A stretch of DNA of 32,000 nt from Candidatus Korarchaeum cryptofilum OPF8 (GTDB taxonomy: Archaea; Korarchaeota; Korarchaeia; Korarchaeales; Korarchaeaceae), in assembly GCF_000019605.1 (NCBI RefSeq), contig NC_010482.1, positions 1,170,001 to 1,202,000 of the forward strand, read 5' to 3'. The notes under the pieces are model-generated. The model was not told the DNA's origin, made no database searches, and saw only the letters and a program-made list of their open reading frames with translations. The position numbers and the translations under genes are program-made. Positions 63 to 18,203 of the stretch are shown piece after piece (the first letter of the stretch is position 1; every line of letters begins with the position of its first letter).

Positions 63-788
63 TTAGGAGGGTGCTGCTGGTGGATTGAACACGTTATCCT
101 GGACAGAGGAGGAAATCGTCTTCGCTATTGCTTCAATTCTCTTAGTAATGATGTTATTTGTCTTCTCCATGTAGAGGTAATATACGGGGACTCCCTTGTC
201 CGTTATGCATACCTCCCTCAGGACTTCTAGCTCGCCTGAAGTCTCCTTCGCATAGTAACAATAGCCCTTCTGACCAGCGTAGTTCCTGGATCCGTTATAT
301 GAGGGAGAGCCTAGCTTACTTCCTTCACCCACCGGATCCCTCAAGTTCTCCTCGCCCGTGGATTGGATCGCCTCCTCGACTGATCCGCTCTGTAAGCATG
401 ACCAATCCTCCCCAGCGGGCTTTGAGCATACTACGTTTGAATTCCCGGATCTTATAATCGTATATTGGATGTTTTCCATCGAGAGATCTAATCTATATTT
501 ATCCCCCTTAAGATAGACCGAGAGCTCCCCTATCTTACTCATATTGACCTCGAGATCGTAATTCACCGAGAATTCCCTGATCGATAGAAATCTGTCCCCG
601 AAGGAGAAGGGCGCTGCCTGAGTCCCTGTCGTTTGAGTTTGAGATGCCTGCTGTGTCTTTTGAGCTTCAGTGTAAGTTCCCAGGAGGGACGGAGCTACGC
701 CCCTGTACATAACTGTATACGCGGATCCCAGCACTATCAGGACGATTACTATGACTCCCATCAGGAGTAGAGTATCACGATCCATCAT
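63..788 (-). CDS. hypothetical membrane-anchored/secreted protein
   Basis: 241-aa ORF. The N-terminus MMDRDTLLLMGVIVIVLIVLGSAY is a single hydrophobic helix, followed by a Thr/Gln-rich linker and a Cys-containing globular part. No family recognised by eye. Confidence 0.55.
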   Translation of the reverse strand: MMDRDTLLLMGVIVIVLIVLGSAYTVMYRGVAPSLLGTYTEAQKTQQASQTQTTGTQAAPFSFGDRFLSIREFSVNYDLEVNMSKIGELSVYLKGDKYRLDLSMENIQYTIIRSGNSNVVCSKPAGEDWSCLQSGSVEEAIQSTGEENLRDPVGEGSKLGSPSYNGSRNYAGQKGYCYYAKETSGELEVLREVCITDKGVPVYYLYMEKTNNIITKRIEAIAKTISSSVQDNVFNPPAAPS

Positions 789-859: not shown

Positions 860-2278
860 TCATATTTTTACCTCTTTTTGCCTTGTTATGTAAGGAATAT
901 CTAATGTTATGACTTTAGCTATGAATATTACCCATCCTAAAGCCATTATTGAGATACCGAAGTATATAGCTGCGAGCGAGTAGAGCCCCTGTAGGTGGGA
1001 GTTAACCCCTAGAGCGAGAGAGACTGCTTGTATTATCAGGATAAGCGCTAAGATATACTTAGCTTGATCCAGTATCTGGGGCTTATGCCTCACTCTTCCC
1101 ACTCTAGCTGCCTTCTTAGGCGGAATGGGCTTCGAAGTGTACTTCGCTACCGGCAGCCCTATTATTATGGCCGTAACCAGGCCAACTGCTATAGCGTAGA
1201 TGAGCGGGATCTCCTGACCCGGCGTCAGAGTACCATATATCGTGAACACTATAAATTCTCCCAAGAGTATTGAGCCGTATAGAGTCGCTATCCTCCTGTT
1301 CCTGGGGTGCCTGCTATACGCAGGGTCTATCCATGGCATGAGGACGAGCACCAGTAGCATTATGCCTGGGACGACTGCGAAGGCCAGGAATGGATCTACT
1401 CCTGTTTTTATCCCAGCATAAATCGCCATCAGGTACCACTCAGGCTGGCCAACTGGTAGGGTTTCAGTTGGTAGGAACTTCTGACCGAGTTCCGCCGGGA
1501 ATGCTGCCGATAGTATTATGAGGGCTCCTAAGACTACGAAGATAGCTGAGATCTCAGTCAATAGATGGTTGGGGAAGAATGGAACTGCAGGCTCGGGATC
1601 AGAGCCATCGTAAGGCGGAGAAGCATGATGCTCATGAACCATCAGGAAGTGCAGCAGTGCTAGTAAAGCTATGAGCCCCGCTACGAGTATGTGATAGGCG
1701 AAGTACCTACCTATTATCTCATCGAAAGTGCCTATCCCGTATATGAGGGGAGCTATCCACTTCCCCCCGGGCATGTTGGATACGAGCGTATTCCCTATCC
1801 TTATCGCCTCAGCCGCTATATGATCCATCCTGAGCGAGTAACCCGTCACTCCACCCAATATCGCGAGCAGCCCTGCTAGTATACCAATAACATAAGTCAG
1901 TTCGTGGGGCCTCTTATAAGCCCCCATGAAGTAGACCCTGAGGAAGTGCAGCATCGCGAGGAGTATCATGAGGTTGGCCGCGTAGTTATGAAGGCTCCTT
2001 ATTACGGACCCGTAAGCGACCTCCTCCATTATCCTGACTATACTATCGTAAGCTAAATTACTCTCCCCAAAGACAGGAACGTAGAACATCAGTAGCAGTA
2101 TTCCAGTGATCCCTAGAATCGCGAACATCAGAGTGGTCAGTCCTCCTAGGCTGTAGAGGGGATGCAATGTATGTCTATAGACCTTCAGTTCCGAGAGGCT
2201 CTTCATACCCAATCTATCGATTAACCAATCAACGAACCTCGATATGCAGCTTCTCTCCTCGCAACTCATTTCTTCCAC
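860..2278 (-). CDS. cytochrome b (bc1/b6f-type, with extra C-terminal transmembrane helices)
   Basis: Two His-x13-His heme-ligand pairs (SLHNYAANLMILLAMLH and YHILVAGLIALLALLH). PEWY Qo-site motif (GQPEWY). Polytopic, 472 aa. Overlaps the Rieske gene by 13 nt. Confidence 0.88.
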   Translation of the reverse strand: MEEMSCEERSCISRFVDWLIDRLGMKSLSELKVYRHTLHPLYSLGGLTTLMFAILGITGILLLMFYVPVFGESNLAYDSIVRIMEEVAYGSVIRSLHNYAANLMILLAMLHFLRVYFMGAYKRPHELTYVIGILAGLLAILGGVTGYSLRMDHIAAEAIRIGNTLVSNMPGGKWIAPLIYGIGTFDEIIGRYFAYHILVAGLIALLALLHFLMVHEHHASPPYDGSDPEPAVPFFPNHLLTEISAIFVVLGALIILSAAFPAELGQKFLPTETLPVGQPEWYLMAIYAGIKTGVDPFLAFAVVPGIMLLVLVLMPWIDPAYSRHPRNRRIATLYGSILLGEFIVFTIYGTLTPGQEIPLIYAIAVGLVTAIIIGLPVAKYTSKPIPPKKAARVGRVRHKPQILDQAKYILALILIIQAVSLALGVNSHLQGLYSLAAIYFGISIMALGWVIFIAKVITLDIPYITRQKEVKI

Positions 2279-2778
2279 CCCTCAGCATAGATATCTCCGT
2301 TCTCATCTATCCTTATCTTAACCTCTGGAAGGGGCTTCTTAGGAGGACCGGCAAGCACTTCGCCGGTGACTGGATCGAAGTAACCCGCATGACAGGGGCA
2401 GTATATGTCATCTTTCTTTTCCAAATGGACTATGCATCCTAAGTGAGTGCAAACAGCGCTGAAGGCCTTCAGCTCAGTGCCAGCTTTCTGAACCAGCTCG
2501 GGCCTGAGCCTTATTAAAATAGTTGGATGCTGACCCCTGCTACCATCCGGATTGAGGGGCATCGTGAATTGCATTTGGGAGTCCGGCTCTAAATCATTTA
2601 TGTTAGCTATCTTGAGCGGTAGGGAGCTTGATCCAGCTCCTATCTTCCCAGTGACCACGCGTTCAGAGGAAATATATTGGACTAAGGGAATCCCGAGGGA
2701 TGCAGCAGCTAGAGCTACTGACGTCACGACACTCGCCTTTATGAAATCCCTCCTCGTCATCTCCACCATTCTTATCAC
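2266..2778 (-). CDS. Rieske [2Fe-2S] protein with twin-arginine signal
   Basis: CTHLGC and CPCH cluster-binding boxes. Tat motif MTRRDFIKA near the N-terminus. GTG at 2778, or ATG at 2769 or 2760, could be the start. Confidence 0.9.
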   Translation of the reverse strand: MIRMVEMTRRDFIKASVVTSVALAAASLGIPLVQYISSERVVTGKIGAGSSSLPLKIANINDLEPDSQMQFTMPLNPDGSRGQHPTILIRLRPELVQKAGTELKAFSAVCTHLGCIVHLEKKDDIYCPCHAGYFDPVTGEVLAGPPKKPLPEVKIRIDENGDIYAEGWKK

Positions 2779-3154: not shown

Positions 3155-4873
3155 TTGGCGGAGGTAATAGAGAGCGATGTCGTTATTATAGGATCAGGAT
3201 TAGCTGGTTTGAGAGCAGCCATTGAGGCCGCGAGAAGGAGTAACGATAAGTTGAATGTGAGTGTCGTGACGAAAGTTCATGCGATGAGATCTCACTCAGT
3301 AGCTTATGCGGGTGGCACGGGGGCTGTTCTCTATCCGGATGAAGGGGATAGCTTTGATCTCCACGCTTATGATACGGTTAAGGGTGCAGCATGGCTAGCG
3401 GATCAGGATGCAGTGGAGCTTTTCGTGAGGCTCGCACCCCAGGAGATCTACCAATTGGAGCATTGGGGGATGCCCTGGGCTAGAAGGAGCGATGGAAGGA
3501 TCGCTCAGAGGCCCTTCGGTGGACATAGTTTCCCAAGAGCATGCTTCGCAGCCGATAAAACGGGTCTATACGCTATGCACACGCTCTACGATACAGCGCT
3601 CAAATATGATGGTATAAAATTTTACCATGAGTTCTTCGTCACCTCCCTGCTCGTGGAGGACAATGAGTTCAGGGGAGTTACTGCTATTGAATTAAAAAGC
3701 GGGGACTTCTACGTATTTAATGCGAAATCGGGTATCTTAGCAACTGGAGGTGCAGGAAGATTATTCTCATTCACAACTTACTCACACTCCTCTACAGCAG
3801 ATGGGATGAGCATGGCTTACAGGGCTGGGCTTCCGCTGAAGGATATGGAGTTCTTTCAGTTCCACCCAACAGGTCTAGTGCCCTCAGGTATACTCATAAC
3901 AGAAGCGGCGAGAGGAGAGGGAGGCTACCTCATAAACAATAAAGGTGAGAGGTTCATGAGCAGGTATGCGCCGGAGAAGATGGAGCTAGCACCTAGAGAT
4001 GTCGTTTCAAAGGCTGAGATGACAGAGATATTGGAAGGAAGGGGCTTCAAAGGTCCAGGAGGACTAGATTATGTTCTCCTAGATTTGAGGCATTTAGGAG
4101 AGGACAAGATAAATGAGAGGTTACCCGATGTGAGGGAGATAGCCATAGAGTTTGCTGGCGTTGACCCGGTTGAGGAACCGATACCGATCAGGCCAGTAGC
4201 CCACTACTCCATGGGGGGCGTCCATACCGATACCTACGGCGCTACTCCAGTGAGAGGTCTTTGGGCAGCTGGGGAAGTGGCATGCGTCAGTTTGCACGGT
4301 GCAAATAGACTAGGGACGAATTCTTCAACGGATTGTTTAGTTTATGGCATGTTAACTGGTAGAGCGGCAGCTGATTACGCGATGAGCAAGAGCAGAGGCG
4401 AGATCCCGCACAAAAAAGTAGAAGCTGAGGAGAAGAGGATATTCGATGGTATGCTCAAGGGGTCGACTGGGGAGAATCCCTACTTAATAAGGAGGGAGAT
4501 GCAGAAAACGATGAGCGATCATGTTTACGTCTTCAGGAATGAGAATGGGCTTAAGGAGGCTATAAGGAAGCTTAAGGAATTGAAGGAGAGATTTGGGAGC
4601 GGGCACGTTGCTGATAGAGATTCAGAGTACAATACGAACCTCATTCACGTCCTCGAGTTGGATGCCATGCTTGAGATAGCTTATGTAGTCGCTCTTTCAG
4701 CCCTCAACAGGACGGAGACGAGGGGCGCGCATACCAGGTTGGATTACCCGAAGACAGATAATGAGAATTGGCTCAAGCATACTGTGATAAGTAGAGGCGC
4801 TGATGGCGAGCCCATCTTCACTTACCTGCCGGTTAGGATAACGAAGTGGCCTCCTGCTGAGAGGAAGTATTGA
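3155..4873 (+). CDS. sdhA: succinate dehydrogenase/fumarate reductase flavoprotein subunit
   Basis: GSGLAG dinucleotide fold, RSHSVAYAGG (covalent-FAD His context), FHPTG, RGEGG. 572 aa. TTG start preceded by GGAGG. Confidence 0.95.
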   Translation: MAEVIESDVVIIGSGLAGLRAAIEAARRSNDKLNVSVVTKVHAMRSHSVAYAGGTGAVLYPDEGDSFDLHAYDTVKGAAWLADQDAVELFVRLAPQEIYQLEHWGMPWARRSDGRIAQRPFGGHSFPRACFAADKTGLYAMHTLYDTALKYDGIKFYHEFFVTSLLVEDNEFRGVTAIELKSGDFYVFNAKSGILATGGAGRLFSFTTYSHSSTADGMSMAYRAGLPLKDMEFFQFHPTGLVPSGILITEAARGEGGYLINNKGERFMSRYAPEKMELAPRDVVSKAEMTEILEGRGFKGPGGLDYVLLDLRHLGEDKINERLPDVREIAIEFAGVDPVEEPIPIRPVAHYSMGGVHTDTYGATPVRGLWAAGEVACVSLHGANRLGTNSSTDCLVYGMLTGRAAADYAMSKSRGEIPHKKVEAEEKRIFDGMLKGSTGENPYLIRREMQKTMSDHVYVFRNENGLKEAIRKLKELKERFGSGHVADRDSEYNTNLIHVLELDAMLEIAYVVALSALNRTETRGAHTRLDYPKTDNENWLKHTVISRGADGEPIFTYLPVRITKWPPAERKY

Positions 4874-4874
4874 G

Positions 4875-5300
4875 GTGAGGCCTATGAGCGAACTTGAGTA
4901 TTATGCCCAGAATAGGAGGGGTGTATCCGGCTGGTTCAAGGTCAGGGGTTACGTTATCGAGAGGAAGTTATATGCCTTGCACAGGATAACGGGAATCCTC
5001 ATAGTTCTCTTCATCTTACCTCACTTCTACAGCACGGGGTGGCATCCAGGTCTCTGGTGGGATGCCTTATTAGGCGTTATAGTGACTTTTCATGTAGCTA
5101 ATGGTCTCAGGCTCACTTTACTTGAGCTCTTCGGGATCGGCATAGGGAAACCGCTGCTCGTGAAGAAGCCCTTCCAGAGGCCTGTCTCCATAGAGGGTAA
5201 GCAGAGGTACCTCTTAGCTATTTCGATCATAATATTCATAGCTTTGGCACTTATCTGGTCATACTATGCAATTCTCGTGAAGCCCCTGATGGGAGGGTGA
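4875..5300 (+). CDS. sdhC: succinate dehydrogenase membrane anchor subunit (SdhC-like)
   Basis: 141-aa hydrophobic protein with about 3 TM helices and conserved His in the helices. Sits between sdhA and sdhB. The start may be the ATG at 4884. Confidence 0.7.
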   Translation: MRPMSELEYYAQNRRGVSGWFKVRGYVIERKLYALHRITGILIVLFILPHFYSTGWHPGLWWDALLGVIVTFHVANGLRLTLLELFGIGIGKPLLVKKPFQRPVSIEGKQRYLLAISIIIFIALALIWSYYAILVKPLMGG

Positions 5301-5304
5301 TTCC

Positions 5305-5625
5305 ATGAGGGAATCAACGAAGATGCTCCTCCATTATATCACGGCCTTGATAATAATAGTGACCGGGCTCATACACCTACTCGCGAACAACGATCCCAAC
5401 ATAGGGAAGTTGATCACTGCTAACACATACCTTTACCTCGGCAATATGGCTATTTTCCTCGCTGCACTCCTGTATCACACGTTCAATGGTATTAGAGTTA
5501 TCCTCATCGAGCTAGTACCAGATAAATGCTGGACGAAGCTCATAGGATGGGCCATCCTTCTTATAGGAATTGCCACGTATATTGTGGGCTTTCAGGTGCT
5601 TCTAATGGCTTTAGGACTCATATGA
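5305..5625 (+). CDS. sdhD: succinate dehydrogenase membrane anchor subunit (SdhD-like)
   Basis: 106-aa protein with 3 TM helices and His-containing helices. Operon position. Confidence 0.65.
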   Translation: MRESTKMLLHYITALIIIVTGLIHLLANNDPNIGKLITANTYLYLGNMAIFLAALLYHTFNGIRVILIELVPDKCWTKLIGWAILLIGIATYIVGFQVLLMALGLI

Positions 5626-5628
5626 GGG

Positions 5629-6450
5629 GTGAGTGTGATGGAATCATCTATGGACCTTTGGAAGCCCGTTGGAACCGTTAAGATTAGGGTTTACAAGTAT
5701 AATCCGAAGAAGGATTTCGCACCGGGATGGAAGGAGTATGAGATTGAGGTGAGCAGGGGAACCACGATACTCGACGCACTTCTGAGGATCAAGGAAGAGA
5801 TAGATCCCTCTCTGGCGTTCAGATACTCCTGTGGGCAGGCTTTATGCGGCTCATGCGCCATGATGGTTAATGGGAGGCAGATGCTCATCTGCAGGACCAG
5901 GGTCTTGGAAGTGGTGAAGGACGGCAAGGTTGAGCTGAGGCCTCTAGATAACTTCCCGATAATCAGGGACCTGGCCTGCGACTTCAAATCCTTCTTCGAT
6001 AAGCATAGGGCAGTCAAGCCTTGGATAATAAGGAGAGATGTGGAGGAGCTGGAGAATCCAACTGGGGACTATAAGCAGACAATAGAGGAATATGCGAGAT
6101 ACTACCAGTTCACTGACTGCCTGAAGTGCGGAGCATGCTACTCCGCTTGCCCAACTGTCGCGACCGATCACGAGTACTTGGGTCCGCAGGCACTTGCGCA
6201 AGCGTATAGGTACATCGTTGATACAAGGGATGAAGGTTTAGAGGAGAGAATAGCTGTGGTGGACAGTGATCATGGATGCTGGCGCTGCCACTTTGCCACC
6301 TCTTGCTCCGATGTCTGCCCCAAGTACGTTGATCCAGCTCAAGGGATACAGCTCCTCAAGAAGCTGATCATGAGGAGTAAGCTGGGCTTCAAGCCCCATA
6401 AACCCGCTGAAGTATTACCATCGAAGATAGGTGAAGTCAAGAAGAGGTAG
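5629..6450 (+). CDS. sdhB: succinate dehydrogenase iron-sulfur subunit
   Basis: Cx4Cx2Cx11C (SCGQALCGSCAMMVNGRQMLIC), CLKCGACYSACP and CHFATSCSDVCPK cluster motifs. Confidence 0.9.
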   Translation: MSVMESSMDLWKPVGTVKIRVYKYNPKKDFAPGWKEYEIEVSRGTTILDALLRIKEEIDPSLAFRYSCGQALCGSCAMMVNGRQMLICRTRVLEVVKDGKVELRPLDNFPIIRDLACDFKSFFDKHRAVKPWIIRRDVEELENPTGDYKQTIEEYARYYQFTDCLKCGACYSACPTVATDHEYLGPQALAQAYRYIVDTRDEGLEERIAVVDSDHGCWRCHFATSCSDVCPKYVDPAQGIQLLKKLIMRSKLGFKPHKPAEVLPSKIGEVKKR

Positions 6451-6662: not shown

Positions 6663-7328
6663 GTGAATCCCATGCGGATACTCAAATGTGAGAGGTGCGG
6701 GAGGGTCGTCGAGGAGCAAGTAGGAGGAAGAGGTCCCGTCATATGCTGCAATGAGGAAATGAGGTTACTAGTCCCTAATGAATCCCCTGAGTTCTTGGAG
6801 GAGCATAGGCCGAGGATCTATCGCGACGATGGAATAATAGTGGAGGTGGGATCCATACCTCATGAAATGGATGAGTCTAGCAGGATATTATGGGTCGAAA
6901 TAGTGAAGAAAGATGGTACCAGGATCAGGAGATATCTGGAGGGAGAGAAGAGGCCTGAAGCCTCCTTCGAGAGGGTCGATGGTGATATTGAGATCAGGAT
7001 CCTATGCAGCAAACATGGCCTCTGGATCTTCGAACATAAAACCGCAAAGCTGGATGTAGTGGAAGCGGTGAGGAAAGCAATTGAGAGATTCAATGAACTG
7101 AGGGGAAGGGAGTCCTTAGCCAGGCTGCTGGAAATATCGGGCGAGTCGATAGTTGTTGAATTTACCGGTAATTTCTGCAGGACCTGCGGATTTTACGACT
7201 ATTTTGAGGACCTCAGACTCCTCATGGAGGATTATAATGTGAGGACTACAATAAAAGTCATTGAGGAGTTTGGAGATGGTTCAATAGTCACTTATTCAAT
7301 AGAGAGTGATGTGGATGGGAGTGGATGA
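6663..7328 (+). CDS. desulfoferrodoxin (2Fe-SOR)-like protein with an extra C-terminal CxxC domain
   Basis: Desulforedoxin-type N-terminus KCERCGRVVEEQVGGRGPVICC. SOR-type core EEHRPRI...VGSIPHEM...LCSKHGLW. About 95 extra residues carry GNFCRTCG. The likely true start is the ATG at 6672. Confidence 0.75.
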   Translation: MNPMRILKCERCGRVVEEQVGGRGPVICCNEEMRLLVPNESPEFLEEHRPRIYRDDGIIVEVGSIPHEMDESSRILWVEIVKKDGTRIRRYLEGEKRPEASFERVDGDIEIRILCSKHGLWIFEHKTAKLDVVEAVRKAIERFNELRGRESLARLLEISGESIVVEFTGNFCRTCGFYDYFEDLRLLMEDYNVRTTIKVIEEFGDGSIVTYSIESDVDGSG

Positions 7329-7962: not shown

Positions 7963-8457
7963 ATGAGAGGAAAGGGCGTTGCTATGAGGATAGCATTGAC
8001 CTCGATCTTCGCTGCTCTATATGCATCCTTAACGATTGCTTTAGCCCCCATTTCGTTTTATGAGATACAAGTGAGGATTTCAGATTCCCTATTAACTCTC
8101 TCCATACTTTTCGGTCCACCTGTCATAATAGGGACCTCCCTAGGATGCTTCATCGCAAATCTTATTGGCCCATTTGGCATAATAGATGCTTTGGGAGGAT
8201 CTATTGCGAATTTAGTTGCGACATACATCGGATGGAAGTTGAGGAAAAGGAGATCATTTGCTTTAGTCCAGATGCCGATCACTGTCTCCTTAATAGTATC
8301 AGCTTACTTGCATGTTCTGTTAAATCTCCCAATACTGATAGTCTTCCTCTATTTGCTCGCGGGATCCGTAGTATCGATAGATATCATGGGCCTGTTCCTC
8401 CTCAGGGTGATCGAGACCCGCTACAGCGGACATAACATGCATGATTTCAAACAATAA
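7963..8457 (+). CDS. queT: QueT-like queuosine/archaeosine-precursor transporter (ECF S-component-like)
   Basis: 164-aa polytopic membrane protein. N-terminal pattern RIALTSIFAALYASLTIALAPISFYEIQVRISDSL is typical of QueT. Lies 18 nt after ogg. Confidence 0.7.
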   Translation: MRGKGVAMRIALTSIFAALYASLTIALAPISFYEIQVRISDSLLTLSILFGPPVIIGTSLGCFIANLIGPFGIIDALGGSIANLVATYIGWKLRKRRSFALVQMPITVSLIVSAYLHVLLNLPILIVFLYLLAGSVVSIDIMGLFLLRVIETRYSGHNMHDFKQ

Positions 8458-8645: not shown

Positions 8646-9731
8646 ATGAAGTCGAATAGGAAGGTAGGGATCGTCGGATGGGGTGTTTACGTACCTAAGT
8701 GGAGAATAAGATCTGAAGAGCTGGCTAGAGGATGGGGAAGAGAATGGAAGCGTTACGCAGCGGGCATAATGGTTGAGGAGAAGAGCGTGCCCGGACTGGA
8801 TGAGGATACCTTCACTATAGCATATGAAGCATCCTTGAATGCCCTTAGGAGGGCTAGGATAGATCCTTCGAAGCTCAGGGCCGTATATGTCGGCACAGAA
8901 TCAAAGCCTTACGCTGTTAAAACCACAGCGACGATACTCGCAGAGGCCCTAGGTGCCGGAGGACCTAAAAGGCTTACTACAGGCGCTGATTATGAGTTCG
9001 CATGCAAGGCAGGGACGGAAGCTGTTCAATCGGTGATAGGACTTGTGGGATCCGGGATGATAGATTACGGGCTAGCAGTAGGGGCTGATACCGCACAAGG
9101 AGCTCCAGGAGATGCCCTAGAATATACCGCATCTGCTGGAGGTGCAGCTTACATTTTGGGGCCCGCTGAAAATTCCATAGCTGTTATAGAAGCATCCCTG
9201 TCTTATGTGACAGATACTCCAGATTTCTGGAGGAGGCAGCATGAACACTATCCAGCTCATACGAGAGCTTTCACAGGGGAGCCGGCTTACTTCAAGCACA
9301 TAATGTCAGCTGCGAGAGAGCTGATGAGCTTAATGGGGACCGGGCCCAACGATTATGATTACGCTATATTCCATCAGCCCAATGGTAAGTTTCCACTGAG
9401 AGTAGGGACTAGGTTGGGTTTCACACCTGACAAGATAAAACCCGGGCTCATAACACCATATATAGGAAATACCTACTCAGGCTCAGCTCTGGTCGGTCTC
9501 GCTGCAGTTCTGGATCAAGCGAAACCCGGACAGAGGATACTTCTAGTCTCCTTCGGATCTGGTGCTGGCAGCGATGCCTTCCACATAGAGGTACGCGACG
9601 GGATAGAGGCTGTCCAAGATCTCGCACCTAAGACGATGGACTATGTCTCGAGGAAGGAATACATAGACTACGCTATTTACGCTAGATTCAGAAGGATGAT
9701 AAAGATGTTGCACGATTTCAGCGGATATTGA
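8646..9731 (+). CDS. hydroxymethylglutaryl-CoA synthase (archaeal type)
   Basis: [10 protein letters not shown] (Glu), [10 protein letters not shown] (Cys), FHQPNGKFP (His), [25 protein letters not shown] upstream. Confidence 0.92.
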
Positions 9732-9732
9732 G

Positions 9733-10878
9733 GTGATGACTATGACGTACATCATAGGTACGGGCATCCTAAAGGTTGGAGATCATTGGGAGAAGTCTTT
9801 GAGGAATCTAGCCGCTGAAGCATCAATATTAGCAATAGAGGACGCAGGAGGGGTTTCAGTGGATTACGTTATTGTAGCTAATTCCCTCTCAGGGGTGGTG
9901 AATGGTCAAGAGAACTTAGGGTCTTATGTGGTATCGCGGTTGAACCTTAAGGGAGTTCCCGCGCTGAAAGTCGAGGCCGCTAATGCCTCCGGAGCCGCCG
10001 CAGCTATTGTGGCAAATTCATTGATAAAAAGTGGAGATGCTAAAAGAGTTCTAGTCATCGGAGTTGAGAAGATGACTGATTATACATCTCTGGAGGATTC
10101 TAACGCAGCTCTATCAACGCTCATGGACTCTGAGTACGAGGCATTCCATGGGGCTACTCTCGACTCCCTACATGCCTTACTCATGAGGGAATATTTGAGA
10201 AAATATCAGGTAAAAAGGGAAGATTTCTCCTACTTTCCGATCTTAATGCATGAAAATGCTGTGGATACTCCGCATGCTCAGTATAGATTCAAGATAGATC
10301 TCGATGCTTACATATCCTCACCCCTGGTAGCCGAACCTATAAGCATGATGGACGTCCCAAGTCCCTCTGATGGCGCTGCTGCGATAGTGCTTTCGGAGAA
10401 GAATGAGGGCCCAAATGGAAGCGTTAAGATATCTTCATTCGGCCAGGCTACTGATAGAATATCGCTATACGATAGGAAATCTCTCTTAGAGATGCCATCA
10501 ATTAGAATGGCATTCAATAGAGCTGTCTCGAAATTGAATAACTTCAAGCCCGATTTCTATATCATAGGGGAGTATTCGAGTGTGATGGGCTACATAGCTA
10601 CGGAGGAGCTAGGTCTCGCTGAGAGGGGCAAGGCTTACAAGCTTTTCATGGATGGGGAGGCTAAGAGGAGCGGACCCACCCCCATAAATCCGGAAGGCGG
10701 ATCTAAGGCAAGAGGAGATCCTATAGGGGCAACCGGCGTCTACCAGCTAGCTGAAGCCTACCTCCAGCTCACGGGAAGGGCTCAGGGATGGCAGGTCAAT
10801 GGAGCTAGAAGGGCTCTAGTCCTCAGCATCGGCGGAGTAGGTTGCAACTCCGTAGTCCATTTAGTTGAGGGGGTGTGA
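9733..10878 (+). CDS. thiolase-fold protein (SCP2/archaeal acetoacetyl-CoA thiolase family) with substituted catalytic motifs
   Basis: Family motifs GVEKM, SDGAAAIVL, INPEGG and GATG are present. The catalytic positions read VEAANASG, YSSV and GDPIGATG instead of CASG, HDCF and GHP. Confidence 0.85.
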   Translation: MMTMTYIIGTGILKVGDHWEKSLRNLAAEASILAIEDAGGVSVDYVIVANSLSGVVNGQENLGSYVVSRLNLKGVPALKVEAANASGAAAAIVANSLIKSGDAKRVLVIGVEKMTDYTSLEDSNAALSTLMDSEYEAFHGATLDSLHALLMREYLRKYQVKREDFSYFPILMHENAVDTPHAQYRFKIDLDAYISSPLVAEPISMMDVPSPSDGAAAIVLSEKNEGPNGSVKISSFGQATDRISLYDRKSLLEMPSIRMAFNRAVSKLNNFKPDFYIIGEYSSVMGYIATEELGLAERGKAYKLFMDGEAKRSGPTPINPEGGSKARGDPIGATGVYQLAEAYLQLTGRAQGWQVNGARRALVLSIGGVGCNSVVHLVEGV

Positions 10879-11294
10879 GTATGTGGGCCTACTGGTTGAG
10901 TGTCCCCGCCCATTGGAGGGAGTTGCCAGCTAGGTACAGGCTGGAAGGGGGCTTATGCAGGAGCTGCGGTCACACTATGCTTCCCAAGGGGGAAGTATGT
11001 CCTATCTGCGGATCCAAGGACATAGTTACCAAACAGCTCCCGAGGAGGGGGAAGATAATCAGCTATTCCGTTATATGGAACGCCCCAAGAGGATATGAAT
11101 ACTATACACCTTACATCGTGGCTTTAATTGAGCTGGAGGATGGGACTAGGTTGATGAGCCAGTTAACTGACGTAGAACCCTCCCAAGTAACTGAGGGCAT
11201 GGAAGTTGAGATGGTACTCAGGAAAGTTAGAGTAAGCGGTGAGTCAGGGATAATTGCGTATGCCTATAAGTTCAGGCCCCTGCTGAAGAAGTGA
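10875..11294 (+). CDS. DUF35 zinc-ribbon/OB-fold protein (thiolase-HMGCS scaffold subunit)
   Basis: CRSCGHTMLPKGEVCPICGS rubredoxin-like ribbon followed by an OB-fold-like C-terminus. Third gene of the conserved archaeal trio. The start may be the ATG at 10881. Confidence 0.85.
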   Translation: MSMWAYWLSVPAHWRELPARYRLEGGLCRSCGHTMLPKGEVCPICGSKDIVTKQLPRRGKIISYSVIWNAPRGYEYYTPYIVALIELEDGTRLMSQLTDVEPSQVTEGMEVEMVLRKVRVSGESGIIAYAYKFRPLLKK

Positions 11295-11458: not shown

Positions 11459-12799
11459 TTGCAGCACATCAAGATGCTCCATTACAGGGGTAAAGCTAGG
11501 GAGATCCTCTCAAGTCTTGGGCTCGAGGATTTCGATAGGATAAGGGTTAAGAGGGGAGGAGATGTTTACGAAGGAATACTCATCCCAAGGCCCGAGATAC
11601 TTGACGATGAGCACATAATAATTAAGCTGGATAATGGGTATAACATAGGCATCGGCCTAGAGGGAGCTGAGATAGAACTTATTTCTAAGGGATCGAGAAG
11701 GAAGGAGAGGAAACTTCCAGAGTTGAGTTATAGAGAGGACCTCCCCCGGGTTTCGGTGGTCGTTACAGGAGGAACTATAACCTCAAGGGTCGATTATTCG
11801 ACAGGAGGTGTCATAGCCCACGAGAGACCTGAAGAACTCCTCGATCTTATTCCAGAGCTCGCTGATATAGCTAATTTGAGATACGTTCAACTCTTCGCGG
11901 AATTCAGCGAGAACTTAACCCCTAGGCATTGGAGGGAGATAGCTAAGACGGTGGAGTCAGAGCTTAAGGGGGGAGCTGAGGGGATAATCGTAGCTCATGG
12001 TACTGATACTATGCATTTCACAGCATCAGCTTTAGCATTCATGTTGAGAGATCTAGATAAACCCGTGGTCTTCGTGGGATCGCAGAGATCTGTGGATAGG
12101 CCGTCAACTGATGCCGTGCTCAATATGATAGCGGCTACGAGGCTGGCCGCTCAGGGGCCCATAGCCGAGTCCGTCATAGTGATGCATTCCAGTCCATCGG
12201 ACGATCACGCTTATGCCTTGAGAGGGGTGAGAGCTAGGAAGATGCACACGTCCAGGAGGGATGCTTTCCTCCCAGTGAACGATCTCCCATTAGCTAGGAT
12301 AAGTAGAGAGGGTATTGAGTTGCTCTCAAAGGACTTCAGGAGGAGGAAGGAAGGAGCTAGCGGAGTGCATCTCGATGATAAAATCGATGAGAGAGTTGCT
12401 TTAATTCAAGTATGGCCTGGGATTCCACAGGGTTTCCTGAGCTCCTTGGATGGGATCTTCAGGGGTATAGTGATAGCTGGAACTGGGTTGGGCCACGTCC
12501 CGAAGCAGATCATACCTGAGATCAGGGACCTTATCAGAAAGGGGATCCCAGTTGTCATCTCTTCACAATGTCTGTATGGAAGAGTAGATTTGAAGGTTTA
12601 TGAGACCGGAAGAAGACTCCTTGAGGCAGGAGTCATACCTGCGATGGATATGCTACCAGAAGTAGCATTGGTGAAGCTAATGTTCGTCCTAGGGCACACT
12701 GATGATTTAGATGAGGTGAGGAATCTCATGTTAACGAACCTAGCCGGGGAATTGGGGGCCCATCTAGGGCTCAACATGTTCCCTCCCTGCTGGAGGTGA
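11459..12799 (+). CDS. gatD: Glu-tRNA(Gln) amidotransferase subunit D
   Basis: Asparaginase-type motifs VVTGGTITSR and HGTDTM. Immediately upstream of gatE. Confidence 0.95.
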   Translation: MQHIKMLHYRGKAREILSSLGLEDFDRIRVKRGGDVYEGILIPRPEILDDEHIIIKLDNGYNIGIGLEGAEIELISKGSRRKERKLPELSYREDLPRVSVVVTGGTITSRVDYSTGGVIAHERPEELLDLIPELADIANLRYVQLFAEFSENLTPRHWREIAKTVESELKGGAEGIIVAHGTDTMHFTASALAFMLRDLDKPVVFVGSQRSVDRPSTDAVLNMIAATRLAAQGPIAESVIVMHSSPSDDHAYALRGVRARKMHTSRRDAFLPVNDLPLARISREGIELLSKDFRRRKEGASGVHLDDKIDERVALIQVWPGIPQGFLSSLDGIFRGIVIAGTGLGHVPKQIIPEIRDLIRKGIPVVISSQCLYGRVDLKVYETGRRLLEAGVIPAMDMLPEVALVKLMFVLGHTDDLDEVRNLMLTNLAGELGAHLGLNMFPPCWR

Positions 12800-12803
12800 T
12801 CTC

Positions 12804-14699
12804 TTGGAGGACAGCTTCTATAGGGATGTTGGATTGAAAGTAGGGCTGGAGATACATCAGAGGCTCGATTCTCATAAGCTATTCTGCAACTGCCCTTCGA
12901 TACTGAGAGAGGAAGAGCCACATTCTTGGATAAGTAGGAACCTCAGCGTTTCTTACAGTGAGCTTGGAACGATAGATCCGGCGGCTAGATTCGAATCCTT
13001 GAGGAGGAGGAATTTCCTCTATGGGATATACTTCGACACGACATGCGAGGTGGAGATAGATGAAGCTCCACCTCATCCCTTGAATGAAGACGCCCTCGAA
13101 ATCTCCATTCAAGTGGCTCTTATGCTGAGGATGAAGCCGATCGATGAGATACACGTGATGAGGAAGATAGTAGTCGATGGTAGCAATACTACCGGATTTC
13201 AGAGGACTGCTCTAGTCGCTTTAGGGCATGGAGAGAGCTATATAGAGACTTCAAAGGGGAAAGTGAGATTAGAAACGCTATGTCTCGAGGAAGAATCAGC
13301 TTACATCGTTGAGAGCACTCCTGAATTCGCTAAATACAGATTAGATAGGTTAGGAATACCCCTAGTCGAGATCTCCACTGCCCCAGATATATGGCATCCG
13401 GAGCAAGCTATGGAGGCAGCTTTGAAAATAGGGAGAATCCTCAGAGCAACTGGGAGAGTCCAGAGGGGTATTGGGACAATTAGGCAGGACATAAACGTCT
13501 CTATAGAGGGAGGAGCTAGGCAGGAGATAAAGGGGATACAGGAGCTCGAGCTCATACCCGAGGTGATCAGAAGGGAGATCTTAAGGCAACAGAATCTCTT
13601 GAAGATTCAGGAGGAATTGAGAAAACGCGGAATCGATGAGAAGGATGTGGATGATCCGATATATGATATAACGGATGCCCTCTCTCAGACAGGATCCCAG
13701 CTTATCAAGAGGTCCCTCACCAGGGGAGAGAGGATCTTCGGAATGAGAGTTAAAGGATTCAGGGGATTGATTGGTAAAGAGATACAACCAGAGAGGCGTT
13801 TTGGAACTGAGTTAGCTGACTATGCTAGGGTATTCGGTGGTGTTAAAGGGATACTGCACGGCGATGAGTTACCGGGTTATGGCATAGGGGATGAGGAGGT
13901 AAAGAGAATCAGGGATGCGCTTTCATGCGATGATGATGACTCCTTCATATTAGTTATAGGGGAAAGGTCCTCCTCTACGCTAGCTCTAGAGTCAGTTAGA
14001 TCGAGGATCAAGTTCTCCATTAGAGGAATACCAAGCGAGACTAGGAGAGCTTTGCCTGATGGGAACACTTCCTTCATGAGGCCAATGCCCGGAGCAGCTA
14101 GGATGTATCCCGAGACAGATATACTCCCGGTTAAAACAGCTCCGATAATCAATAGGATAAGAGAACTTCCAAAGATGCCAGAAGAGACAGTAAGCGAACT
14201 AATTAAGGAATATGGAATTAACAGCGAGCTTGCTTGGGATTTATATGATGAGGGCAAGATATCGCTCTTCAAGAAGCTCGTGAGCTATGGGGCCCCAGCG
14301 AGCTTCACAGCGGCCACACTCACATCAACGATGAGGATGCTCAGAAGGGAGGGAGAGAATATTGAGAGGATCACTGAGGATCATCTGGTCGAGCTATTCA
14401 GATTTCTAGGGGATGGGATGCTTGCAAAGGAGGCTGTCCCTGAAGTACTTAGGGGGATCGCGAGGGGCGATTACTCAAGCGTCCATGATTACCTGAAATC
14501 TTATTCAATGAGCTTAGATGAGTTGGATTCTTTGATAGATTCTACACTCGAGAGATTCAGGGATAAAGTACTCGAGAGGGGCGATAGGGCCTTCGGAATG
14601 CTCATGGGGGAGGTCATGAGGGTAGCGAGAGGGAGGATAGATGGCTCTATTGTGAGCGAGAGACTGAGAATCAAGTTAAAAGAATTTCTCAAGACTTGA
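12804..14699 (+). CDS. gatE: Glu-tRNA(Gln) amidotransferase subunit E
   Basis: N-terminal GLKVGLEIHQRL. 631 aa with a GatB-like core and an archaeal insertion. TTG start 4 nt after the gatD stop. Confidence 0.95.
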   Translation: MEDSFYRDVGLKVGLEIHQRLDSHKLFCNCPSILREEEPHSWISRNLSVSYSELGTIDPAARFESLRRRNFLYGIYFDTTCEVEIDEAPPHPLNEDALEISIQVALMLRMKPIDEIHVMRKIVVDGSNTTGFQRTALVALGHGESYIETSKGKVRLETLCLEEESAYIVESTPEFAKYRLDRLGIPLVEISTAPDIWHPEQAMEAALKIGRILRATGRVQRGIGTIRQDINVSIEGGARQEIKGIQELELIPEVIRREILRQQNLLKIQEELRKRGIDEKDVDDPIYDITDALSQTGSQLIKRSLTRGERIFGMRVKGFRGLIGKEIQPERRFGTELADYARVFGGVKGILHGDELPGYGIGDEEVKRIRDALSCDDDDSFILVIGERSSSTLALESVRSRIKFSIRGIPSETRRALPDGNTSFMRPMPGAARMYPETDILPVKTAPIINRIRELPKMPEETVSELIKEYGINSELAWDLYDEGKISLFKKLVSYGAPASFTAATLTSTMRMLRREGENIERITEDHLVELFRFLGDGMLAKEAVPEVLRGIARGDYSSVHDYLKSYSMSLDELDSLIDSTLERFRDKVLERGDRAFGMLMGEVMRVARGRIDGSIVSERLRIKLKEFLKT

Positions 14700-17162
14700 C
14701 TCCTTTCTATCCTTTATGATCTCATCAAAATTCATGTCGAGAGCCCCCAATATTTGCTCGAATGTCGACCTCATTATCTCCACATACTTCTCCTTATCTA
14801 TCTGCGACTTGCTAGCTAGCTCCACGGGCATCACCCCTTCCCTTCCGATGACCTTTACGTACTTAATCACCTGTCCTGCCTCAACACGTTTGCCCATGCT
14901 CTCCAATATCCTAGCGACCTTCACATGCTGGGGTGTGGTCTTAGTATAATCCTCGGGGCTCTTGCCCAGCATGCATCTGAAAGCGAGTTTCTCCAGATCA
15001 TAATCTCCGGATTCCAACATCTTAACGTAGCCTCTTATGATCTCCTCTATCTTCATTTTTGCGTTTGAGAAATCCTCCGGGCTTCTGACCTCTGATAAAG
15101 TTTTTATGACCTCATCGAATGCTTCCTTCACTAGGATAGGTATGTTCCTCTTCTTGCCCAACAATCCCTTTATCACGACGGACCCATCTTTAGTTACTCC
15201 TAAGTAGTTCTTCTTCAATCTCGAGAAAACCACGTACCTATACCATTTATCGAGCTCCAGATCTATCCCTAACTTCTCCTCGACCCTCCTCTCGAACTCC
15301 TCTATCTGTCCCTGCGTCGCCCCCCTGATGAATAGGCTATCCGTATCCCCATAAATGACACTAAGATTCATCCTGCGGGCCTCATCTATGGAGAGGAGCA
15401 TCGCCTTCCTAGCGAGAGCTGTGATCATCTCGGCCGCGGGAGGGGAGTAGAGGGGGAAGTTCTCATACCCAAATACCCCATAAGAAGCATTCAGGAAAAC
15501 TTTGAGACTCCTTTGAACTGTATCGAACCACTCCCTCATATTTTCATCCTTCTCCTCCTTCGCCCTCCTCTTATACCTCTTGACTCTTAGATCCCTTAGA
15601 GCTTGAATCAAGTACGGAACTATCCCCCTCTCCTTCTTGCATATCCAATGAGGGAGCTCATTTACTGGTCTGTTTTCCCTGCAATCCTCATGGGGGCAGT
15701 TTATTGTCTCAAAACTGACTTTCCAGCGTCCTATTATTGACGGATATAGACTAGCGAAGTCCATTACTGCCACATCGAAGTGTATTCCGGGGATGGGTTC
15801 TAGAACTATAGCTCCCATGTACTTCTTCCCCTTTATGATCGCTTGAGAGTACGTCCTTTCCCCTCTCACTTTCATTATCTCCTCTTTTTCGGGGATGAGC
15901 CAGCCTCTCCTTCTATATTCGAAGAATATCATGTTCCTTATCCAAGAGGATACTCCCTGCCTCGATACCTCCTCGAGCGACATCTTGCTTATCCTAGAGA
16001 ATAGGAAGAGCAATTTGATTATCTCGCCGGAACCTATATTTCCAAGCCTAAAAGTGAGTTCGGCATCCTTGAGGCAATATTCAGCTAAAGTCCTGGTCTC
16101 AACTGAGTAGAAATCCCTAGATTCCAGCTCCATCTTCTTCTCTCCCAATATAGCGTCAGCCACTTCATCTAATGTGTAGCCCGCGTATTTATTATCAAAA
16201 ACATAAACCTGTATTGATCTATTGCTGAATAATTTGTAAAGATCTATATGGATACCCGTGTCCAGTATCGCTCTATCCTTCTCGAGCCTCACGGGCCTAT
16301 CGCTCACTCCCAGCTCCTTAGCCCTTCTAGCTAGGTATGGAAGGTCGAAGTTATCTCCATTATAAGTAAATAAGAGAGGATATTCACTTATTCTGTCCAA
16401 TACGCTCCTTATAAGCCTACCCTCACTCTCATAGCTTATCAGTTTGGCACCGTTTGATAACTCACCAGGGAGGCTTCCCCCTCTGTGCAGAACATGAACT
16501 TCTTTCCTCCCCGAGCTATCCACTATCGCGGCGGCTGCGACTGGCTTATCAGGTTCCCTAGGATCTGGTATCTTGTCTAATGGAGATAGGACCTCTATAT
16601 CTAGTGCTGCATTCGGCATGCTTGGGGAGGGCTCATCGAAGAGCGGGATCATCGAGAGTAATATGTCCCTGACCTCGCCATCGGAGTGGAGCAATTCCCC
16701 TTCGAGTTCGGCTTCTATGCTGATCCTCCTCAAGCTCCCTGAGTCATCTATCTCATAGAGGCACCCCGGTATCAGATTTCTATCGAAGATGAAACAATCA
16801 TAATATTTTATTCTCGCTTCCCAGACATCGTACCCCAGCTTGGCTAATGCATCCCTCATGTTTTTAGGAGATCCCCCTATCGCAAGCGGGTCCTTAGCCT
16901 CAACTTTAGTTAACTCCACCTCCCTATCCCTAAGGATATCGTATTTCCTGACCCTCGAGATCGAGTGAATCCTGGATGCGAACTCCGAGAGGGCTTCAGA
17001 TACCCTCTCCTCAGGAGCATTGGTGAGGAGATATGGCTTGTGATCCGTTTCATCTTTAACCAGAAATATCTCTCCGCTATCTACATCGTAGAACTTCATC
17101 ACAGCAGCTCTATCATCTCCTGAGTAGAATACTGAGAGCAGGACTCCTCTTCTCTGGGGCAT
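14676..17162 (-). CDS. polB: family B DNA polymerase (all exonuclease and polymerase motifs intact)
   Basis: Exo I LDIEV, Exo II YNGDNFDLPYL, Exo III YCLKDAELT. Pol A DFASLYPSII, Pol B KVFLNASYGVFG, Pol C YGDTDS. No intein-sized insertion. Confidence 0.95.
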   Translation of the reverse strand: MPQRRGVLLSVFYSGDDRAAVMKFYDVDSGEIFLVKDETDHKPYLLTNAPEERVSEALSEFASRIHSISRVRKYDILRDREVELTKVEAKDPLAIGGSPKNMRDALAKLGYDVWEARIKYYDCFIFDRNLIPGCLYEIDDSGSLRRISIEAELEGELLHSDGEVRDILLSMIPLFDEPSPSMPNAALDIEVLSPLDKIPDPREPDKPVAAAAIVDSSGRKEVHVLHRGGSLPGELSNGAKLISYESEGRLIRSVLDRISEYPLLFTYNGDNFDLPYLARRAKELGVSDRPVRLEKDRAILDTGIHIDLYKLFSNRSIQVYVFDNKYAGYTLDEVADAILGEKKMELESRDFYSVETRTLAEYCLKDAELTFRLGNIGSGEIIKLLFLFSRISKMSLEEVSRQGVSSWIRNMIFFEYRRRGWLIPEKEEIMKVRGERTYSQAIIKGKKYMGAIVLEPIPGIHFDVAVMDFASLYPSIIGRWKVSFETINCPHEDCRENRPVNELPHWICKKERGIVPYLIQALRDLRVKRYKRRAKEEKDENMREWFDTVQRSLKVFLNASYGVFGYENFPLYSPPAAEMITALARKAMLLSIDEARRMNLSVIYGDTDSLFIRGATQGQIEEFERRVEEKLGIDLELDKWYRYVVFSRLKKNYLGVTKDGSVVIKGLLGKKRNIPILVKEAFDEVIKTLSEVRSPEDFSNAKMKIEEIIRGYVKMLESGDYDLEKLAFRCMLGKSPEDYTKTTPQHVKVARILESMGKRVEAGQVIKYVKVIGREGVMPVELASKSQIDKEKYVEIMRSTFEQILGALDMNFDEIIKDRKESSLEKFF

Positions 17163-17210: not shown

Positions 17211-18203
17211 TTGCGAAAGAGGTGTCCACCAATGAGGTACAAGCTATTCGCGGTAGCTATGCTCGCACTTATGCTAGCTAGCCAGATGAGAATGGTAGAT
17301 TCAGCTTATCCGATGCCAGTAGCGACCATCCAGATAAGGGAGGATTTTTCAGCTACAATGAAGGCGAGCGTATATAGGACGTTAAGTGGCGATGAAACTT
17401 ACTTCTTCACGAATACCTTGAAGGCGCCTATCCTGTATTGGATGAACTTCAGAGGGAATGTTACGATGAATCAAACACCCGCCGGGCTTAGGGGAGAGTA
17501 CAGATTCTTGCTTTATCCTCAAGTCGGGGATCCAACGAATAGAGCGGACTTCCTTAAGAAAGCCGCTGCTAGAGGTTATCTCTCAAACTCGACGATATTG
17601 AGCATGATGAGCTTCTTTTATGGAAGAAATTTGTTAATTTTATACGGGCTTAGATGGAGTTTCTTCAATGTGACCTATAGAGGGGTTCCTAACGTTAACT
17701 ATACTGGTATAGCTGCGATATCATCGGCTTCCTCGAACTCGAGCGTGATAAAGAGCCTATGGGTCTCATATAAGAGCGAGACCCTTGAAACTCAAACGGT
17801 AGTCGTAAGTTATGAAATATATGCAGAGACTAAGCCCCTGACACTTAGGAAGAGCGCTAGTGGCGATTATTACGTTATGGATCTGAGCCCCCTCACTTAT
17901 CTGCTACCTGACGATATAGCCTGCAACCTCTGGGTCAACTTCACGAACCCATCCATACAGATAATGGGAGGTAATTTGGCGCCCAAAGTGATTGTCTGGA
18001 ACAATGCGCTCTGGGAATTTGTCCCACAGCTTCAAAAGGACGGGAAATCTCTCACAATAATAGTTAAACGCTCTGAAATTTATGTTACGCCTCAGCTGGT
18101 CCTCTTAGCCTCATTACCTCCGGTCGTAGTAGGAGCTTATATCTTCTGGAGGATAAAGGGAGAATCCTTGAGAGCTGGACGGGGATCCAAGGAAAAAAGA
18201 TGA
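17211..18203 (+). CDS. hypothetical extracellular N-glycoprotein with signal peptide and C-terminal membrane anchor
   Basis: Signal-like MRYKLFAVAMLALMLASQ (probable start is the ATG at 17232). At least 7 NxS/T sequons (NVT, NQT, NST, NVT, NYT, NSS, NFT). C-terminal LVLLASLPPVVVGAYIFW helix followed by a basic tail. Confidence 0.6.
   Translation: MRKRCPPMRYKLFAVAMLALMLASQMRMVDSAYPMPVATIQIREDFSATMKASVYRTLSGDETYFFTNTLKAPILYWMNFRGNVTMNQTPAGLRGEYRFLLYPQVGDPTNRADFLKKAAARGYLSNSTILSMMSFFYGRNLLILYGLRWSFFNVTYRGVPNVNYTGIAAISSASSNSSVIKSLWVSYKSETLETQTVVVSYEIYAETKPLTLRKSASGDYYVMDLSPLTYLLPDDIACNLWVNFTNPSIQIMGGNLAPKVIVWNNALWEFVPQLQKDGKSLTIIVKRSEIYVTPQLVLLASLPPVVVGAYIFWRIKGESLRAGRGSKEKR

Follow-up and report, generated by a model that had tools for sequence, protein, structure and literature searches.

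In the genome of Candidatus Korarchaeum cryptofilum OPF8, the gene lying between those for HMG-CoA synthase (HMGCS) and a DUF35 protein encodes a thiolase-like protein in which all three catalytic motifs of archaeal thiolases are replaced. The locus is part of a 32,000-nt stretch of contig NC_010482.1 (positions 1,170,001 to 1,202,000), which was analysed as a whole and is called the window below; coordinates are given within it. We think it rather likely that the thiolase-like protein has become a non-catalytic subunit whose retention reflects the reported inactivity of archaeal HMGCS outside its complex, and that acetoacetyl-CoA is made elsewhere. An earlier note on this DNA had offered two options, a scaffold with acetoacetyl-CoA made elsewhere or a different chemistry by analogy to the KSQ ketosynthases. 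The data presented here support the first of these better than the second.

The motifs of archaeal module thiolases have been defined as CxS, HDxF and GHx, and mutating the His of HDxF (H284A) leaves the archaeal complex unable to form HMG-CoA from acetyl-CoA (PMC12960953). The thiolase-like protein was compared to PDB sequences with phmmer, which returned, among others, the thiolases of Pyrococcus furiosus (7yvy, E 5.8e-75) and of the Methanothermococcus thermolithotrophicus complex (6esq/6et9, E 1.2e-59). Both of these alignments are gap-free around the motifs. As aligned by HMMER, EAANASG faces EAACASG, GEYSSVM faces VHDAFTVM and GDPIGATG faces GHPVGATG, and neither a Cys nor a His can be fitted to the catalytic positions in another way. 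The loss of the three motifs described in the earlier note is thereby confirmed. All three positions are 100% invariant in a set of 95 canonical module thiolases, the nucleophilic Cys and the His of GHP each being present in 95 out of 95; the protein studied here has Asn and Asp, respectively. Since these positions are invariant in the canonical set while the gene is under strong purifying selection (see below), chance is an implausible explanation for the triple replacement. The protein also fails to reach the cut-offs of two NCBIfam models, scoring 332.6 bits versus 420 for NF004720 (thiolase domain protein) and 272.9 versus 600 for NF053570 (the equivalog for acetyl-CoA acetyltransferases of the M. 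thermolithotrophicus type).

The only Cys in the protein is the one in GGVGCNS. Its presence had been pointed out before, but the residue is not conserved: orthologues at 77-79% identity have a Ser in its place, and the Cys was thus rejected as a substitute nucleophile. Aligned by eye to the C-terminal CxG motif of thiolases, it also appears to lie off the position of the acid/base Cys. Many Korarchaeota orthologues are devoid of any Cys; therefore, a thioester intermediate is impossible in those proteins.

The open reading frames (ORFs) at 8646-9731, 9733-10878 and 10875-11294 and the codons named in the earlier note all read as claimed, including TAT TCG AGT GTG at 10573-10584 in the thiolase-like gene. 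While the 3' end of this gene stands, its start is probably ATG 9742 rather than 9733, because a GAGGTGA sequence precedes this ATG and the 378-aa database proteins begin there. Numbered from ATG 9742, the residues at the three altered motifs are N81, Y278 and D326. The product is identical at 378 of 378 positions to ACB07922.1 / WP_012309819.1 / UniProt B1L643 from the same organism, which is named acetyl-CoA acetyltransferase in UniProt, JGI/IMG and GenBank. This name is probably a functional mis-annotation. The start of the DUF35 gene either overlaps the stop codon that ends the thiolase-like gene (GTGA) or is ATG 10881.

Judging from their sequences, both partners are intact, in line with what had been proposed. 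HMGCS scores 575.6 bits with the NF003274 equivalog (cut-off 244) and 549.8 bits with TIGR00748 (cut-off 353), and retains [19 protein letters not shown] as well as GNTYS, motifs also found intact at every related locus. The DUF35 polypeptide, a stand-alone protein of 139 aa, carries both Pfam domains. As to the thiolase-like protein itself, an AlphaFold2 model built from 34 homologues has a mean predicted local distance difference test score (pLDDT) of 94.7 and a predicted template-modelling score (pTM) of 0.94. Foldseek superposes the model on 6esq_A/6et9_C with a TM score of 0.94 and a root-mean-square deviation of 1.8-2.0 Å. The SCP2-type thiolase fold is thus predicted to be retained.

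The ratio of nonsynonymous to synonymous substitution rates (dN/dS) was estimated by the Nei-Gojobori method in the eight Korarchaeota pairs with estimable dS. Values range between 0.03 and 0.11 for the thiolase-like gene and between 0.014 and 0.053 for HMGCS in the same pairs. Purifying selection on the thiolase-like gene is strong, although it falls short of that on HMGCS by a factor of roughly 1.4 to 2.6. Dividing (100 - thiolase identity) by (100 - HMGCS identity) yields a mean of 2.8 over 78 Korarchaeota pairs; canonical modules compared with one another give 0.9-1.7. A relative-rate comparison, in which 11 canonical outgroups were used and the canonical Korarchaeota locus L059 served as reference, revealed an excess of +0.07 to +0.17 substitutions per site in the thiolase-like subunit. 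No such excess was found in HMGCS (-0.003 to +0.027) or DUF35 (-0.04 to +0.04 substitutions per site). The acceleration is restricted to the thiolase-like subunit.

To describe what has changed, columns were considered canonically conserved if at least 90% conserved in the 95 canonical module thiolases. Of 83 such columns, 59 are kept in the Korarchaeota representatives, 12 are partly kept and 12 are lost. Retained columns include GVEKMTD, DGAAA and GG.KA.G.P.GATG; the lost ones include C84, H329, F282, M51, F143, N179 and E277. Within Korarchaeota, position 84 is occupied by N, G or E, position 279 by H, G, E or S, and position 329 by D, N, H or Y, with entropy percentiles of 64, 75 and 87, respectively. 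By this measure, the positions once used in catalysis vary within the phylum like other variable sites of the protein.

The gene order QueT-HMGCS-thiolase-DUF35-GatD-GatE, followed by a convergent PolB gene, recurs in more distant Korarchaeota relatives (L001 and L003). A QueT gene is found 5' of HMGCS also at L003/L004, and the placement of GatD and GatE downstream of the module is repeated at L001, L003, L005 and L059. The HMGCS-to-PolB order also flanks canonical thiolases with EAACASG, HDAF and GHP, namely P0035 (L005, whose contig begins at the thiolase) and P0251 (L059/L060, labelled Candidatus Korarchaeota archaeon, a basal lineage). Because synteny is shared with these canonical loci, the Cys-less gene can be regarded as the orthologue of the normal module thiolase, with the loss having occurred in place within Korarchaeota. 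In the window, the 3' ends of GatE (+) and PolB (-) overlap convergently by 24 bp (14676-14699), an arrangement also seen in the distant Korarchaeota L001 and L059.

Motif states were ordered on a neighbour-joining tree. In the basal lineages (P0251, P0035) the nucleophile position is C, with HDAF and GHP at the other two. P0029-31 have G, HDSS and GHP; P0032-33 have G, HDNS or HDSS, and GYP; P0011-28 have G (E in P0016), HDYS and GNP. Finally, Korarchaeum proper, including the window protein, has N, (G/E/S)EYS and GDP. Taken in this order, the sequences appear to record a stepwise loss, affecting the nucleophilic Cys first, then the His of GHP and then HD. The C-to-N and H-to-D changes of the window protein are thus shared by close Korarchaeum relatives, but not by other Korarchaeota, where C, G or E and N, Y or H are found. 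A search with P0035, the nearest canonical relative, as query, aimed at a canonical paralogue in the Cys-less Korarchaeota, returned canonical orthologues at the same syntenic locus (P0251) and identified no second copy within the Cys-less group. Altogether, synteny-based orthology, the dN/dS values, the confidently predicted fold and the intact partners agree with the view of the earlier note that this is a selected subunit, dead or remodelled, and not a decaying gene.

Two other homologues depart from the canonical motifs in their own ways. P0256, a relative of the canonical clade of Korarchaeota type, reads EAAHASG, HDDP and GHP; P0066, from a Chloroflexi bacterium, keeps the Cys and has TD replacing HD.

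Replacement of the nucleophile is not confined to Korarchaeota. In the best 120 homologues, the corresponding column contains C (65), G (23), N (11), E (7), T (5), D (4), S (3), A (1), Y (1) and one gap. Cys-less module thiolases adjacent to an HMGCS with an intact tetrad include that of Picrophilus (L007, 6001-7209), which reads EASTASG (Thr) together with GDP, and that of a member of the Caldisphaeraceae (L008, 6001-7143), which reads EAGEASG (Glu) and where the HMG-CoA reductase gene lies directly 3' of DUF35. The same holds for two from Pyrodictiaceae (L029 and L043, with Asp and Gln, respectively) and two from further archaeal metagenome-assembled genomes (L037, Asp; L040, Gly). In the neighbour-joining tree, which was built on BLOSUM distances and is indicative only, the Cys-less proteins from outside Korarchaeota form about ten separate groups nested among canonical sequences. 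This pattern suggests repeated, independent loss of the nucleophilic Cys across archaea.

We thus envisage the following arrangement. The protein would be a pseudo-thiolase with the correct SCP2-type fold, having lost acyl-enzyme formation, Claisen condensation and thiolysis. It would be retained because archaeal HMGCS works only within the HMGCS/thiolase/DUF35 assembly, where the thiolase subunit would form one half of the fused chamber that binds CoA and would offer DUF35 its docking surface. The complex of K. cryptofilum and most Korarchaeota would then act solely as an HMG-CoA synthase, on acetoacetyl-CoA produced by another enzyme or route. Silencing the thiolase could perhaps be favourable, as an active enzyme would cleave the imported acetoacetyl-CoA. 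In two published accounts (PMC12960953; PMC11522927), the archaeal complex comprises two HMGCS dimers and two thiolase (ACAT) dimers bridged by four DUF35 monomers, with a site for CoA binding that is fused where HMGS and ACAT meet. According to the same accounts, archaeal HMGCS is 50-100 residues shorter than the stand-alone enzyme and, when the proteins are expressed alone, HMGS is inactive and ACAT insoluble. Since HMGS is inactive alone, ACAT is insoluble alone and the CoA site is fused at the interface, a scaffolding role is the simplest account. In lacking the residues that thiolase chemistry requires while keeping its predicted fold under purifying selection, the protein corresponds to what is called a pseudoenzyme, and it is predicted to be inactive, with the drift at the former catalytic positions as an indirect sign.

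Several points weigh against this interpretation. We infer the persistence of the complex, the reliance of HMGCS on it in this organism and an outside origin of acetoacetyl-CoA, the first two being carried over by analogy from M. thermolithotrophicus through secondary citations. A Pfam scan of all ORFs of at least 110 aa detected no other thiolase-superfamily or NphT7-like gene in the 32-kb window, and reading about 1 to 6 kb to either side of the Korarchaeota orthologues revealed no second thiolase. No alternative source of acetoacetyl-CoA was identified in these regions; it is on this point that the scaffold model is weakest and that a remodelled enzyme finds some room. Furthermore, dN/dS values down to 0.03-0.06 are stringent for a pure scaffold. 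Potentially reactive residues (E112 of GVEKM, H173, K113 and K325) are invariant, and a clade-specific Tyr occupies the third position of the former HDxF in the P0001-P0028 group. Because of these residues and this Tyr, a remodelled active site deserves consideration.

Such an enzyme would have a Cys-independent activity that still feeds HMGCS, for example a decarboxylation in which malonyl-CoA yields the enolate of acetyl-CoA and this condenses with no acyl-enzyme involved, or an aldolase/lyase reaction like those of Ltp2 and Sal. We consider this unlikely, even though it would account for the very strong purifying selection and for the conservation of E112, H173, K325 and the third-position Tyr. 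New residues in the pocket region are also conserved, the change of F282 to S being invariant, and that of F143 to L nearly so, across all Cys-less Korarchaeota. There is precedent as well, in the Cys-less thiolase-fold aldolases Ltp2 and Sal, which are paired with DUF35, and in TbSLP, a weak malonyl-CoA decarboxylase (PMC12329534). Yet in the YD[HC][FY] motif of the aldolases the catalytic Tyr comes first, whereas here the first residue is Gly, Glu, Ser or His and Tyr comes third. Both enolate-stabilising His are gone in the window clade, the former catalytic positions differ among Korarchaeota subclades so that no common new catalytic set emerges, and the evolutionary rate of the subunit rose instead of falling. 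A broader proposition, to which we attach a still lower likelihood, is that the first committed step towards isoprenoid lipids in K. cryptofilum, in most Korarchaeota, and maybe in Picrophilus-like Thermoplasmatales, Caldisphaeraceae and some Pyrodictiaceae is not the thiolase reaction of the known complex. In one form of this proposition, the Cys-less subunit may deliver a C4 unit (or a C2 enolate) to HMGCS in a Cys-independent manner. In the other, an unrecognised enzyme may make acetoacetyl-CoA, with the dead thiolase pocket serving as a receiving and hand-over chamber; inactivation may then have been favoured for the reason given above, cleavage of the imported acetoacetyl-CoA.

Alternatively, another locus might encode a second thiolase paralogue that is active, with which the dead subunit would pair in heterodimers or mixed complexes; channelling to HMGCS would then be preserved via this partner. 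Thiolases are dimers in the solved archaeal complex (PMC11522927), and several thiolase/DUF35 pairs are common in archaea, H. volcanii having two and S. acidocaldarius seven (bioRxiv 10.1101/2024.07.05.601840). However, the window and the flanks of the Korarchaeota orthologues lack a second thiolase, as stated, and the loci read offer no direct evidence of such a paralogue in Korarchaeota; we regard this scenario as improbable. We give even less credence to a repurposing of the whole module outside the mevalonate pathway, with HMGCS in another role. The HMGS/ACAT/DUF35 architecture has been so repurposed in bacteria, in the PhlABC/MucABC acyltransferases, but these represent the opposite case, with HMGS dead and the thiolase Cys kept (PMC12960953). 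Moreover, the Korarchaeum HMGCS lies far above the equivalog cut-offs, keeps its full E-C-H-N tetrad and evolves at a rate unchanged relative to the canonical Korarchaeota lineage, and the HMG-CoA reductase gene directly follows the Cys-less module in Caldisphaeraceae. Lastly, an artefact, be it an error of sequencing or assembly, gene decay or a misalignment that conceals a Cys and a His, is extremely improbable, and nothing was found in its favour. Several independent assemblies (JGI, ENA, Logan, NCBI) contain the identical protein, as does the finished OPF8 genome, which speaks against the assembly errors considered in the earlier note. The N, GEYS and GDP states occur in 10 clusters at 76-100% identity. 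In addition, the frame is intact with dN/dS at most 0.11, no gaps lie near the motifs, several orthologues are entirely Cys-free, and the predicted fold superposes on solved thiolases; an artefact or pseudogene was rejected on these grounds.

If the non-catalytic reading is correct, metabolic reconstructions trusting the acetyl-CoA acetyltransferase name would wrongly score the first mevalonate step as present. The origin of acetoacetyl-CoA would become a question in K. cryptofilum and in the other lineages with Cys-less modules, including the cultured Picrophilus. Should an intact second thiolase exist, the case would be an ordinary one of paralogue replacement. A single syntenic locus passing from canonical to Cys-less to fully degenerate provides a natural separation-of-function series, which could reveal the parts of the thiolase that HMGCS needs (fused CoA chamber, DUF35 docking surface) apart from thiolase catalysis. 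In the literature searched, we found no description of an archaeal module with a dead thiolase and a live HMGCS, and no informative paper linking Korarchaeota with HMG-CoA synthase, mevalonate or thiolase. The closest published case is the converse one, in bacteria (PMC12960953).

Features of the module and its surroundings in the window. Positions are those of the window; the altered codons are listed within the thiolase-like gene.
Feature	Position	Strand	Remarks
QueT transporter gene	7963..8457	+	Pfam PF06177, E 3.8e-34; synteny anchor upstream of the module in Korarchaeota
HMG-CoA synthase (HMGCS), 361 aa	8646..9731	+	Catalytic Glu/Cys/His/Asn tetrad intact
Shine-Dalgarno-like GAGGTGA	9730..9736	+	Overlaps the HMGCS stop codon; 5 nt ahead of ATG 9742
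Thiolase-fold protein, 378 aa from ATG 9742 (381 aa from GTG 9733)	9742..10878	+	Predicted non-catalytic subunit
AAT (Asn) at the nucleophilic Cys position	9982..9984	+	CxS motif; EAANASG
GGA GAG TAT TCG (Gly-Glu-Tyr-Ser)	10567..10578	+	Canonical His-Asp-Ala-Phe (HDxF)
GAT (Asp) at the His position of GHP	10717..10719	+	GDPIGATG
DUF35 protein, zinc ribbon (CxxC...CxxC) and OB fold	10875..11294	+	Pfam PF12172, PF01796
GatD and GatE genes	11459..14699	+	Pfam matches; downstream synteny anchors of the orthologous locus across Korarchaeota
Family B DNA polymerase (PolB) gene	14676..17162	-	Pfam matches; convergent with GatE; further synteny anchor

Other parts of the window contain genes for a Rieske protein with a TAT signal and for cytochrome b, beside genes for a flavoprotein and an Fe-S subunit resembling those of succinate dehydrogenase/fumarate reductase (860-2778, minus strand; 3155-6450, plus strand). 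The flavoprotein and Fe-S subunit genes are separated by an unassigned 141-aa ORF (4875-5300). Such respiratory-type genes are present here in an organism that has been described as a peptide fermenter. A desulfoferrodoxin-like ORF of 221 aa (6663-7328, plus strand) is covered by Pfam domains over its first ~120 residues only, and two ORFs, of 240 aa (63-788, minus strand) and 330 aa (17211-18203, plus strand), have no Pfam family.

Among known systems, the archaeal module thiolase (6ESQ/6ET9; 7YVY) is like the thiolase-like protein in fold (TM 0.94), gene order, synteny-based orthology and 59 of the 83 conserved columns. It differs in that its CxS Cys, HDxF and GHx His are all replaced in the thiolase-like protein, whose NCBIfam scores fall below cut-off and which, measured against its HMGCS partner, evolves about 2-3 times faster. 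The Sulfolobus tokodaii protein ST0096 (PDB 4YZO) has the thiolase fold with a Ser at the nucleophile position, and matches the window protein with E 2.4e-54 and 31% identity. Its family, however, keeps HD and GHP, and the S. acidocaldarius member is not adjacent to HMGCS or DUF35; the idea that ST0096/4YZO is the module thiolase of Sulfolobales was thus rejected in favour of a separate, stand-alone paralogue family. This family is found across Sulfolobales and in some Thermoplasmata. At the S. acidocaldarius locus (L058, 5001-6397), an 89-aa ORF without a Pfam match overlaps the stop codon of the gene.

The Ltp2/Sal aldolases (PDB 6OK1; PMC12329534) share with the Korarchaeum protein the SCP2-thiolase fold, a DUF35 partner and the exchange of the nucleophilic Cys for a small residue (Gly in CtSal). 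Their motif is YDHF or YDCY, with the catalytic Tyr first, whereas the window protein has GEYS and its sister clade HDYS, with the Tyr third. Their DUF35 is carried on a MaoC-type hydratase partner; in contrast, that of the window stands alone and no hydratase gene is present in the window. In the Foldseek ranking, 6ok1 comes at rank 46 with 20% identity, a long way behind the archaeal thiolases. An aldolase reading was set low, with the Tyr at the wrong motif position. The trypanosomal SCP2-thiolase-like protein TbSLP (5AB4-7) also lacks the nucleophilic Cys; it has a YDCF motif and no DUF35 partner. KSQ and chain-length-factor ketosynthases belong to the thiolase superfamily and have lost the nucleophilic Cys to an amide residue, which is Gln there and Asn here. 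KSQ-type proteins keep two active-site His needed for decarboxylation. The analogy drawn in the earlier note is therefore weak: both His are lost, the replacement is Asn and not Gln, and the former catalytic positions vary between Korarchaeota subclades. A KSQ-type decarboxylase was accordingly set low.

A parallel is offered by the PhlABC/MucABC Friedel-Crafts acyltransferases and the P. fluorescens ACAT/HMGS-DUF35, with which the Korarchaeum module has in common the tripartite architecture and the retention of one dead thiolase-superfamily subunit (PMC12960953). MucAC alone has undetectable activity, and MucB-containing pairs or single subunits are poorly soluble or inactive (PMC12960953). 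The thiolase-like protein is not a PhlC/MucB subunit, however, since the latter is recognised by a retained Cys and GHx with HDxF absent and the former has neither the Cys nor the GHx His. In PhlABC/MucABC the HMGS-like subunit is dead and the thiolase keeps Cys and GHx, whereas in the Korarchaeum module the situation is reversed, with the thiolase dead and HMGS intact; in PMC12960953 we noticed no description of this reverse case. In conclusion, the bacterial enzymes provide, by analogy, a direct precedent for retaining a dead subunit in this architecture. The Korarchaeum module would be the mirror image of the bacterial repurposing, either catalytic partner apparently being amenable to silencing while the assembly persists.

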